Below are positions 14,057 through 16,625 of a stretch of DNA of 19,391 nt, piece after piece. The DNA comes from Candidatus Helarchaeota ASGARD archaeon Hel_GB_B (GTDB taxonomy: Archaea > Asgardarchaeota > Lokiarchaeia > Helarchaeales > HEL-GB-B). Both the position numbers and the translations under genes were made by a program. Where the stretch lies: positions 1 to 19,391 of the forward strand of contig SUPR01000070.1 of assembly GCA_005191425.1 (NCBI GenBank), in the 5' to 3' direction. Each line of letters begins with the position of its first letter. The first letter of the stretch is position 1. The notes under the pieces were generated by a model. That model saw only the letters and a list, made by a program, of their open reading frames with translations, had not been told where the DNA came from and searched no databases.

Positions 14057-15160
14057 TTAAATTCTTTTTATATTTTTAAGACAAATAGGACATTGATGAG
14101 TTAATTGATATACTTCATTCCAGCAATGCTGATGAAATTTGGTATGACAATAGGGGCAAATAATTTTACATTCGCTGGTACCAGAAACTCCTTCAAGATC
14201 TAAAGTGATAGGTCTATTACAAGTTGGACATTTAAACTTGTGACATAATGCACAAACTTTTTCAGAATTTTTCAGTAATAAATCCTTAAATTCTTCAATA
14301 ATAGAGATAATTTTTTTATTTTTATCCCAGTAGTCTAATTGATAAGATATAAACTCAGATATTTTATTTGTCAAGCTCTCACTTTTTAATTTAGAAATTA
14401 GAGAAATTTCTGGAGCTTTTTTAGGATAATTTTCAGGTAATATAAACTCAAATTCAAATTTTTCTCCAGTTTCAATCTTTATATTAACATTGAAAATTAT
14501 TTTAGCACCTGATTGGACTAAACCTGCAATATACGGTTGGATTTCTTTCATTTCATAGAATATTCTAAGTCTGTGTTCTAATTTTTGAGCGATTTCATCA
14601 ACAACTGCAATAACACTACTCTCTGGCTTCCAATTTTTTAAAGTATTAATTTGTGAGATTTTAATGAATTTAGCAGTTTCAGGGGCTAATTTTACAGTAG
14701 GTGGAAGTTTGTCATAATAGATATCAAATTCAAAGTTTTTTATACCTTCATAATCAATTATTATTCGCAGCTTTTTAGGCCCAAGAGCAGTTATGTTATA
14801 ACTATAGGACAATTGTTCACCAATTTTATCTAAAACAGAAGAACTCATAATTAATCCTTCGATTTCACGAATAATTTCTATAACATGTTCAGGTCTGTTT
14901 TCATTCCATTTTTTTAATGTATACAGACTGGCTTTGGGAGTACCTAATATTACCTCTAATGAATTATCATATTGAATTTTTGGTTTAGAAGGATAATTAG
15001 AAAAATCTATAATAACCTCATAATTCGCATAGATAGATGCCGTTAAATATACTTTAATTATGCCAGTACCAAGAACATCAATCGAATACTCATATGCAAT
15101 ACGGTCTAACTCCTCTTGCACTAAATTTTTTGATTCATGTCTTCTAAATTTTTTATCCAT
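14057..15160 (-). CDS. Three tandem UBC-fold (UEV/RWD-like) repeats + C-terminal C4HC3 RING (FANCL-like architecture)
   Basis: Repeats carry NYPSKPKI / KLPPTVKL / LPENYPKKAPEI and TLKKW..HVIEIIREI / TLKNWKPESSVIAVVDEI / QLDYWDKNKKIISIIEEF. RING: CPTC...CPYC-x4-H-x2-C...CPIC. Confidence 0.8.
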   Translation of the reverse strand: MDKKFRRHESKNLVQEELDRIAYEYSIDVLGTGIIKVYLTASIYANYEVIIDFSNYPSKPKIQYDNSLEVILGTPKASLYTLKKWNENRPEHVIEIIREIEGLIMSSSVLDKIGEQLSYSYNITALGPKKLRIIIDYEGIKNFEFDIYYDKLPPTVKLAPETAKFIKISQINTLKNWKPESSVIAVVDEIAQKLEHRLRIFYEMKEIQPYIAGLVQSGAKIIFNVNIKIETGEKFEFEFILPENYPKKAPEISLISKLKSESLTNKISEFISYQLDYWDKNKKIISIIEEFKDLLLKNSEKVCALCHKFKCPTCNRPITLDLEGVSGTSECKIICPYCHTKFHQHCWNEVYQLTHQCPICLKNIKRI

Positions 15161-15503: not shown

Positions 15504-16625
15504 ATGAGAATTTTTCAGATAACTCAATCATTTTACCCGGTCATGGGTGGAATTGAAACATATATCGATAATTTAAGTACAAAACTTTCTCTTAGAGGAA
15601 ATGATTTATATGTTATTACAAGGTTTTTTCCATCTAGAAGTAAGAATACTCGAAAATTGAAATATAAAGTTATTCGTTTAAAAGAAATTAAGGTTCTCGA
15701 AAAATTAAAATTCAAAAATTTTCCCCATTTTTATCGATCGGTCTATTTTTATCCGCTTACTAAAAAATTAGTATCTAAATTAAACCCAGATGTTTTACAT
15801 TTTCACTCCAGATTTTATTTTACGCAAGCTAGATTACTCAAAAAACCGACAATATTTACATCACATACACCTTATTTTTGGTACTGGAAAAAGATATTTA
15901 TACGGAAATACTTTTTAGACTCATTTGATATTATTTTATGTTTAACAAAGCGACTTTTAAATATGGTAAATAAAATTTCAAGTTCAAGAGCAGTTTATTT
16001 GCCACATGGTATTGATACAAAACGTTTTTCTCCAAATTTAGATAGGAATGTAATAAGATTAAGATACAATATAAGTAAAGATGAAAAAATAATTTTATGT
16101 CTTGGAAGGATGGTATTTTACAAAGGTTATCATATTATGATTAAATCAATGCCATATATTCTGGAGAAAAATAAAAAGGTTAAATTGATAATAGTTGGGT
16201 CTGGGCCTTTATTAAATGAACTTAAATCATTAGCAATTAAATATAATCTTCAAAATAATGTAATTTTTGCGGGAAGGGTTGAAGATGAATTTATTCCACT
16301 TTATTATGCAGGGTGTGACATATTTGTTCATCCAGCCCTAAAAGCTGAATATTCTCCCCGTGTTATTTTTGAAGCCCTCGCGTCTGGGAAGCCGATTATT
16401 TCTACTTATTCTGGTGGAGTTGTTGAAATTATTAAAAATTTTCAAAATGGCGTTTTGATTAAGCCCAATGACCCTAAAAAATTGTCTGAAACTATCCTTG
16501 ATCTCCTAAGTAATTCAAAATTATTGCAAAAACTTTCCTCTTCAGCATTACAAAGCGCTTTAAATGAATATTCCTGGGATATAATTATTAATAAATATCT
16601 TGAAATTGTAAAATCAATCTTATAA
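15504..16625 (+). CDS. Glycosyltransferase family 4 (GT-B fold)
   Basis: MRIFQITQSFYPVMGGIE, HGIDTKRF, GRMVFYKG, the E-x7-E motif EYSPRVIFE, ASGKPII and NGVLI. Confidence 0.93.
   Translation: MRIFQITQSFYPVMGGIETYIDNLSTKLSLRGNDLYVITRFFPSRSKNTRKLKYKVIRLKEIKVLEKLKFKNFPHFYRSVYFYPLTKKLVSKLNPDVLHFHSRFYFTQARLLKKPTIFTSHTPYFWYWKKIFIRKYFLDSFDIILCLTKRLLNMVNKISSSRAVYLPHGIDTKRFSPNLDRNVIRLRYNISKDEKIILCLGRMVFYKGYHIMIKSMPYILEKNKKVKLIIVGSGPLLNELKSLAIKYNLQNNVIFAGRVEDEFIPLYYAGCDIFVHPALKAEYSPRVIFEALASGKPIISTYSGGVVEIIKNFQNGVLIKPNDPKKLSETILDLLSNSKLLQKLSSSALQSALNEYSWDIIINKYLEIVKSIL

Follow-up and report, generated by a model that had tools for sequence, protein, structure and literature searches.

A predicted RING-type ubiquitin ligase with a FANCL-like domain architecture in an Asgard archaeon

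In the ubiquitin systems known from archaea, the ligase (E3) is a minimal RING protein of one domain. In eukaryotes, FANCL binds ubiquitin through its ELF domain and substrate through its URD, listerin uses its RWD domain to dock on the ribosome, and UEV domains bind both ubiquitin and P-x-x-P peptides. As for domain order, FANCL (PDB entries 3k1l, 3zqs and 7kzp_L) consists of ELF, a double RWD (the URD) and a C4HC3 RING; the C-terminal module of listerin/Ltn1 (8aaf_e, 9ofv_e, 9gy4_F) places an RWD directly before a C4HC3 RING; and BABAM2/BRE (6gvw_C, 6h3c_C), which serves as a scaffold in the BRCA1-A and BRISC complexes, contains tandem UBC-like domains that lack cysteine. The small single-domain RING E3 of archaeal ubiquitin operons, of the Caldiarchaeum type, works with ubiquitin, an activating enzyme (E1) and a conjugating enzyme (E2) that are all eukaryote-like (PMC5654768). 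Here we analyse a stretch of 19,391 nucleotides (hereafter the window; contig SUPR01000070.1 of assembly GCA_005191425.1) from Candidatus Helarchaeota archaeon Hel_GB_B, and in it a gene whose product, P0001, adds three pseudo-E2 domains to a C-terminal zinc finger and lies outside any such operon. We consider it reasonably likely that P0001 belongs to the Asgard ubiquitin system as a RING-type E3 ligase for ubiquitin or a ubiquitin-like protein.

The open reading frame is intact, with 367 codons and an ATG start (Table 1), and the gene is genuine and conserved among Asgard archaea. Five orthologues at 63-67% identity are of equal length and share the start methionine of P0001, while a second tier of relatives, 560-590 amino acids long, stands at 29-33% identity. 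When 1.8 billion representatives were searched exhaustively with phmmer, 87 relatives came up at E values of 1e-3 or lower, 34 of them at 1e-10 or lower. The database relatives are hypothetical proteins from metagenome-assembled genomes of Helarchaeota and Promethearchaeota, to which UniProt gives the automatic names 'RWD domain-containing' or 'RING-type domain-containing' protein; a search of NCBIfam found no family for P0001. Many orthologues had been flagged as having stops inside, which turned out to be read-through beyond the C-terminus, and the frame that was checked proved intact. The sequencing runs listed as containing the stretch are all metagenomic DNA runs from hydrothermal vents and marine sediments, with no RNA run among them.

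Three consecutive repeats, R1, R2 and R3, precede the finger. When the family alignment was cut at the boundaries given in the original prediction, which had been made from the sequence alone, and the pieces were compared profile against profile, R1 (residues 11-106) matched R2 (107-195) with 98% probability and an E value of 1.4e-13, and R3 (196-298) was matched by R1 at 4e-5 and by R2 at 1e-5. The proline turns Y56-P57-x-x-P60, L152-P153-P154 and Y245-P246-x-x-x-P250 are kept across the family, as are the tryptophans of the L-x-x-W motifs (W85, W177 and W278). A (Y)PxxP motif had been claimed for every repeat, and this is true of R1 and, in the longer form just given, of R3, but the turn of R2 is degenerate, with LPP in its place. 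Residues 1-302 contain no cysteine and no HPN motif, either in P0001 or in its close homologues (6/6). The dead state of the E2 folds therefore stands as first proposed, but the catalytic positions that had been read by eye, the S of SLYTL and the Q of QINTL, do not: alignment to UBE2N puts F270 at that position in R3, and about A77/S78 in R1.

The fold itself is indicated by several kinds of evidence. The Pfam RWD model (PF05773) matches R3 at 29.5 bits against a curated cut-off of 22.8; R1 and R2 alone remain below that cut-off, though they are homologous to R3. Among 35 relatives, Pfam recognises RWD in 31 and UQ_con in 28. An AlphaFold2 model built from 35 sequences, with a mean predicted local distance difference test score of 88.6, displays three times over a pattern of helix, four-strand meander and helices, and has the elements of the RWD/UEV fold (an alpha helix, the four-strand meander, C-terminal helices and a YPxxxP turn), the repeats being joined by long connecting helices. 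The nearest single-domain structures to R1 are UEV, E2 and RWD domains (among the 50 rows listed), and R2 is covered by two-domain structural fits. At the level of sequence, a search of the PDB with P0001 by itself gave only weak E2 matches (E values of at least 0.1), and the profile of R1-R2 gave nothing significant against PDB sequences, its best natural match being the N-terminal UEV of BABAM2 (E 0.06). Because of the homology among the repeats, the Pfam RWD match, the AlphaFold2 pattern and the two-domain fits of R2, we conclude that R1, R2 and R3 are all dead UBC/RWD folds, and the intact frame with three homologous, cysteine-free repeats is borne out.

The finger that follows is the most conserved part of P0001. 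Across 35 family members, conservation reaches at least 94% for each of C303, C306, C311, C314, C335, C338, H343, C346, C357 and C360; 30 of the members keep C331, and at position 345 there is a His in 26 and a Cys in 5. The spacing C303-x2-C306-x28-C335-x2-C338-x4-H343-x2-C346-x10-C357-x2-C360 supplies the eight ligands of a RING of the C4HC3 variant. All the Cys and His residues named in the original prediction are thus conserved, but its choice of C311/C314 as the first ligand pair, with C303, C306 and C331 left as an extra cluster, has to be revised. We regard C303/C306 as the more likely first RING pair, because profile alignment to yeast listerin pairs these two residues with listerin's first CxxC, because a weak alignment to Pfam zf-rbx1 (10.9 bits, cut-off 31) spans residues 302-360, and because P0037, P0058 and the two-repeat P0098, three natural variants without the C311/C314/C331 segment, retain a C-hydrophobic-hydrophobic-C pair right after the last R3 helix. 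His or Cys is present at position 345 in 31 of the 32 relatives that have the insert and in none of the three that lack it.

Judged from these patterns of conservation, the finger is more likely a C4HC3 RING into which a third zinc site resembling that of Rbx1 has been inserted. Site 1 would then be formed by C303/C306/H343/C346, site 2 by C335/C338/C357/C360, and the inserted site 3 by C311/C314/C331/H345. The RING-H2 of Rbx1/Roc1 likewise has a C-x2-C...C insert between its first and second ligand pairs, and we take H343-x-H345-C346 of P0001 to be the counterpart of H80-x-H82-C83 of Rbx1, where ligands 5 and 6 likewise have a His between them; the profile match to RBX1 (E 1e-4) adds to the likeness. 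P0001 differs from Rbx1 in having no cullin-binding N-terminal strand and in using C-x2-C, not C-x-H, as its ligand 3-4 pair; the likeness is also limited in that zf-rbx1 scores far under its cut-off and the third site is deduced from conservation. A cross-brace topology is predicted, with which the secondary structure and the alignments to the RINGs of FANCL and listerin are consistent: in the AlphaFold2 model a helix at 344-354 begins at ligands 5 and 6, as in RING domains, and the structural alignments to both proteins extend to the C-terminus of P0001. Among the RINGs of known ligases, the family profile matches the listerin RWD-RING (E 1.6e-6), Arkadia (8e-5) and RBX1 (1e-4).

The whole model resembles FANCL above all other known structures. 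Foldseek against the PDB ranks human FANCL first (7kzp_L, E 6.2e-9), colinear over residues 15-367 against 2-369, followed by BABAM2 (3.8e-7), fly FANCL (1.7e-5), listerin (1.8e-5) and then the double RWDs of CENP-O and Knl1. Human FANCL is also first among Swiss-Prot models (E 7.1e-9, residues 12-366 against 2-372); among AlphaFold clusters three archaeal members of the family lead (E 1e-25 to 1e-27) and FANCL entries occupy most of the rows after them; and by language-model features, which we treat as a lead only, FANCL clusters rank right behind the family's own (0.87). Of the double RWDs, the FANCL URD fits the tandem repeats best. The two proteins have the same domain order and similar lengths (367 amino acids in P0001, 375 in FANCL), with three cysteine-less UBC-like folds followed by a C4HC3 finger whose core is C-x2-C-x4-H-x2-C in both. 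The FANCL-like architecture of the modelled protein is well supported, and the prediction from which we started, which had named FANCL and BABAM2 as the proteins to compare, is upheld in that the model has UBC folds in the repeats and returns FANCL first and BABAM2 second.

Likeness of architecture does not extend to orthology with FANCL, which is not supported. A true orthologue or ancestor would have repeats corresponding one to one to ELF, RWD1 and RWD2 and would presumably monoubiquitylate a DNA-repair or chromatin target; the colinear match with nearly identical domain boundaries and the identical finger core speak for it, as does the FANCL_d1 model, which comes near its threshold in the N-terminal repeat of one relative (21.7 bits against 23.8). 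P0001 itself matches none of the Pfam families FANCL_d1, FANCL_d2, FANCL_d3 and FANCL_C at E values up to 10, only 2 of the 35 relatives match FANCL_d1, both below the cut-off, FANCL is outside the 60 best matches in a profile search of PDB sequences, which listerin leads, and no ELF domain appears among the 50 rows listed as single-domain matches of R1. The whole-chain TM score against FANCL is 0.21-0.23, with a root-mean-square deviation of about 18-20 A, so that the relative orientation of the domains differs. Unlike FANCL, P0001 links its repeats by continuous helices, its repeats are more alike to one another than are FANCL's domains, its finger has the extra third zinc site deduced above, and its archaeal relatives include forms with two or four repeats. 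No match to FancD2 was found in the host genome (3.5 Mb, 93.7% complete), which is weak evidence since the control genomes were silent too.

The distribution and the history of the repeats bear on the same question. In a survey of 400 Asgard genomes the family was found in 108, of which 106 belong to the window's own class (Loki/Helarchaeia); the other two are marginal matches in one genus of another class, and that genus carries a two-repeat version in all of its genomes (6/6). Most other Asgard classes yielded none with these queries. The survey, which the original prediction had called for, reveals a conserved family that these queries place almost wholly in one class. In a tree of 67 individual repeats over 100 alignment columns, built from archaeal sequences only, R0, R1, R2 and R3 each form a single clade that takes in both the three-repeat and the four-repeat proteins; the supports are 96, 99, 81 and 93 in the Shimodaira-Hasegawa-like approximate likelihood ratio test (SH-aLRT), and R0, R1 and R2 group apart from R3 (support 88). 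Since it includes no eukaryotic sequences, the tree says nothing direct on FANCL. The grouping of R0, R1 and R2 indicates that part of the array comes from internal duplication, and the sequences suggest an RWD-RING core extended by such duplication within the archaeal lineage. Repeats clustering with one another had been named beforehand as an outcome that would count against FANCL orthology and spare the ligase call, and within an archaeal tree that is what we see. Together with the absence of FANCL family matches and the near confinement to one class, this speaks against the proposal that the protein is ancestral to FANCL; we regard orthology or ancestry as distinctly unlikely. The shared architecture may stem from common descent or from independent assembly.

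Members of the family vary in layout around this core. The two-repeat protein of the other Asgard class, 286 amino acids long and encoded at locus L041 (G119:C116:4300-7300, frame 1024-1884 on the minus strand), joins its two RWD-like repeats to a plain C4HC3 RING in which the zinc insert is missing. The Lokiarchaeial orthologues (L017, L027 and relatives) are 550-600 amino acids long and possess a fourth, more E2-like N-terminal repeat that scores up to 46 bits with UQ_con and has no Cys, as well as a linker of some 100 residues that is acidic and rich in proline. In P0026, P0031, P0038 and P0039 an extra N-terminal RING-like cysteine cluster gives a layout of RING, pseudo-E2 array and RING.

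By sequence, the nearest known structure is not FANCL but listerin. The best PDB match of the family profile is the RWD-RING of yeast listerin (164 positions, profile 224-387 against Ltn1 1397-1559), and in the structural alignments of both Foldseek and VIA the C-terminus of listerin is matched by residues 175-367 of P0001, the RWD standing directly before the RING in both proteins. P0001 could accordingly be imagined as a listerin-like quality-control ligase, its R3-RING docking on the large ribosomal subunit and tagging stalled nascent chains together with a NEMF/RqcH homologue; the genome does contain an NFACT_N/RqcH homologue, and an isoleucyl-tRNA synthetase gene adjoins the Lokiarchaeial orthologues. 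However, most archaea without this family also have RqcH, so that its presence does not discriminate, and the synthetase may be a matter of plain synteny. Upstream of its single RWD, listerin has about 1,400 residues of HEAT/ARM solenoid where P0001 has two further pseudo-E2 domains; the 367 residues of P0001 are all taken up by the three UBC-like folds and the finger, leaving neither the solenoid that spans the 60S subunit nor the N-terminal domain. Listerin in turn lacks the inserted zinc knuckle. We hold a role of this kind to be very improbable.

Further indications of function come from the ubiquitin system of the host and from the relatives of P0001. The host genome has a ubiquitin operon of the archaeal type on contig C128, where genes for ubiquitin, an E1, a small RING and two E2-like proteins are found, and a further E2 on C17. 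A paralogue of 429 amino acids, 28% identical to P0001, is encoded on contig C178 directly upstream of, and on the same strand as, a gene for an E1-like protein of 418 amino acids, which has eukaryotic Ube1 as its best NCBIfam match and, compared with the operon E1, an insert of about 60 residues that includes a Cys-Thr motif. The same adjacency recurs in G126, G127 and G128, which represent three genera of the order, making four genomes with that of the host (G000). In the other class, the two-repeat RING protein sits between an E1-like gene and two more RING genes. Although it is relatives, and not the P0001 gene itself, that adjoin an E1, this arrangement is most economically read as pointing to a role in the conjugation of ubiquitin or of a ubiquitin-like protein.

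We favour an E3 ligase because the E2 folds have neither Cys nor HPN, the RING ligands are highly conserved and the family profile matches the RINGs of ligases; because ubiquitin, E2s, an E1 and a small RING are encoded in the genome and an E1 lies beside the paralogue and the two-repeat relative; and because the family occurs in 106 genomes of its class, each positional repeat forming one clade. The profile matches and the neighbouring E1s likewise render plausible the ligase call with which the work began. Several points weigh against it. The gene lies outside the ubiquitin operon, between a glycosyltransferase gene and a double-RING gene; with the single sequence, zf-RING_2 reaches 16.4 bits against a cut-off of 27.3, and the Pfam RING models all stay below their cut-offs; C4HC3 spacing is also the signature of PHD fingers, which are not ligases; and many tandem-RWD proteins, such as BABAM2, the kinetochore RWD proteins and Mediator subunits, are pure scaffolds.

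A different proposal is that P0001 is a non-catalytic scaffold or ubiquitin receptor, comparable to BABAM2/BRE, the kinetochore RWD proteins or PHD-type fingers, in which array and finger only bind, any ligase activity coming from the neighbouring double-RING protein, P0002, whose two RING-H2 fingers score better. The ligand spacing shared with PHD fingers speaks for it. BABAM2 is the second-best match to the whole chain and the best to R1-R2, and it has in common with R1 the motif YPxxP...L-x-x-L-x-x-W-N/D-x-x-x-P; its sequence match to R1, already mentioned, is non-significant, and Pfam BRE remains below its cut-off, being sub-threshold in 5 of the 35 relatives. Yet BABAM2, which is not a ligase, lacks a RING, as do the kinetochore RWD proteins, whereas in P0001 the finger is what is best conserved, and it is ligase RINGs that it matches by profile. 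The E1 genes beside the paralogue and the two-repeat relative also point to an enzymatic cascade. A purely binding role is, in our judgement, unlikely.

If P0001 is an E3 ligase, its finger would be a cross-brace RING, carrying a third zinc site like that of Rbx1, and would recruit a charged E2 whose gene lies at another place in the genome. By means of the pseudo-E2 array, which may serve as a binding arm, the protein would hold its substrate, ubiquitin or a partner, in analogy to the ELF and double RWD of FANCL, the RWD of listerin and UEV domains. In Helarchaeales, P0001 probably acts together with the co-oriented, PCI-like double-RING protein encoded downstream, whose FPYAP motif is a speculative ligand for one of the repeats; the pairing hints at a multi-subunit ligase.

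In the searchable literature we found no description of a multi-RWD RING protein or ligase in archaea; a remark on one Asgard sequence with an RWD-like domain stands in one paper (PMC6601020). Within those bounds the architecture is undescribed in archaea, as had been supposed, and P0001 is probably an undescribed archaeal ubiquitin ligase, by prediction. The family bears on the question of where the large, substrate-selecting E3s of eukaryotes originated: with the domain plan of FANCL, and with some members tied genomically to eukaryote-like E1s, it offers a testable candidate for a complex pre-eukaryotic E3. With it, an archaeal cascade of E1, E2 and E3 that includes an arm for substrate binding could be rebuilt, and one could ask what pseudo-E2 arrays recognise. 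That the family descends from an archaeal RWD-RING ancestor shared with FANCL, listerin and BABAM2 is a tentative idea that we think rather doubtful. If true, substrate-selecting, multi-domain RING E3s acting with a eukaryote-like E1 would have existed in Asgard archaea before eukaryogenesis.

Table 1. Features of the P0001 locus and of the paralogous locus, with their positions (in the window unless a contig is given) and the basis of each assignment.
Feature	Position	Strand	Basis or description
Whole gene, protein P0001	14057..15160	-	Open reading frame list and translation; 367 amino acids, ATG start, stop codon 14057-14059
Repeat R1, residues 2-108	14837..15157	-	Cys-less UBC/UEV/RWD fold; YPSKP and LKKW motifs
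Repeat R2, residues 109-195	14576..14836	-	Cys-less UBC/RWD-like fold; LPP and LKNW motifs
Repeat R3, residues 196-298	14267..14575	-	Canonical RWD domain; YPKKAP and LDYW motifs
Predicted RING finger, residues 299-367	14060..14266	-	Ligand conservation, profile matches, helix 344-354, structural alignments to the C-terminus
Putative inserted zinc knuckle, residues 311-331 (C311, C314, C331)	14168..14230	-	Co-variation with position 345; weak zf-rbx1 alignment
Downstream neighbour P0002, 365 amino acids	12852..13949	-	Candidate partner; acidic N-terminus, PCI-like part, zinc ribbon, two RING-H2
Paralogue and E1 pair	G000 contig C178, L039: 7607-8863 and 8967-10256	both -	Paralogue 28% identity; E1 NCBIfam Ube1

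The gene for P0002 is co-oriented with that for P0001 and begins 107 bp downstream of it. Its acidic N-terminus bears an invariant F-P-[YF]-A-P motif; the middle of the protein is helical to winged-helix and PCI-like, and is followed by the zinc ribbon and the two RING-H2 fingers, for which Pfam zf-RING_2 gives 32.3 bits and profiles match the RINGs of Arkadia and RNF4 at about 1e-4. An ESM Atlas model of the helical part matches PCI-domain clusters only (TM 0.41-0.48), which we take as a lead. P0002 is restricted to Helarchaeota. The gene pair is found in the closer relatives as well, across families f1 and f2 of the order, and in three genomes of the second family the gene that immediately follows the one for the triple-RWD RING protein encodes a full-length P0002 orthologue at 42-45% identity; a third family of the order and the Lokiarchaeial loci do not have the pair. 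The two genes are a lineage-specific but conserved module. Prediction of a complex between the two proteins scored 0.01, which is evidence neither way.

On its other side the P0001 gene is flanked by a GT4 glycosyltransferase gene (15504-16625, plus strand), and another (L017:2120-3256) flanks the Lokiarchaeial orthologue that is 29% identical to P0001. We considered GT4 as a functional partner and rejected it, since the two glycosyltransferases are only 23% identical and, at a third locus, that place is taken by a winged-helix protein; the recurrence is therefore probably coincidence or synteny. Finally, single pseudo-E2 domains of the R1 type are found in many Asgard proteins of 250-735 amino acids (P0040-P0097), in otherwise unannotated contexts and in some cases with zinc ribbons, and the host genome itself has at least five such genes (L010-L014, on contigs C121, C115, C144, C123 and C179).

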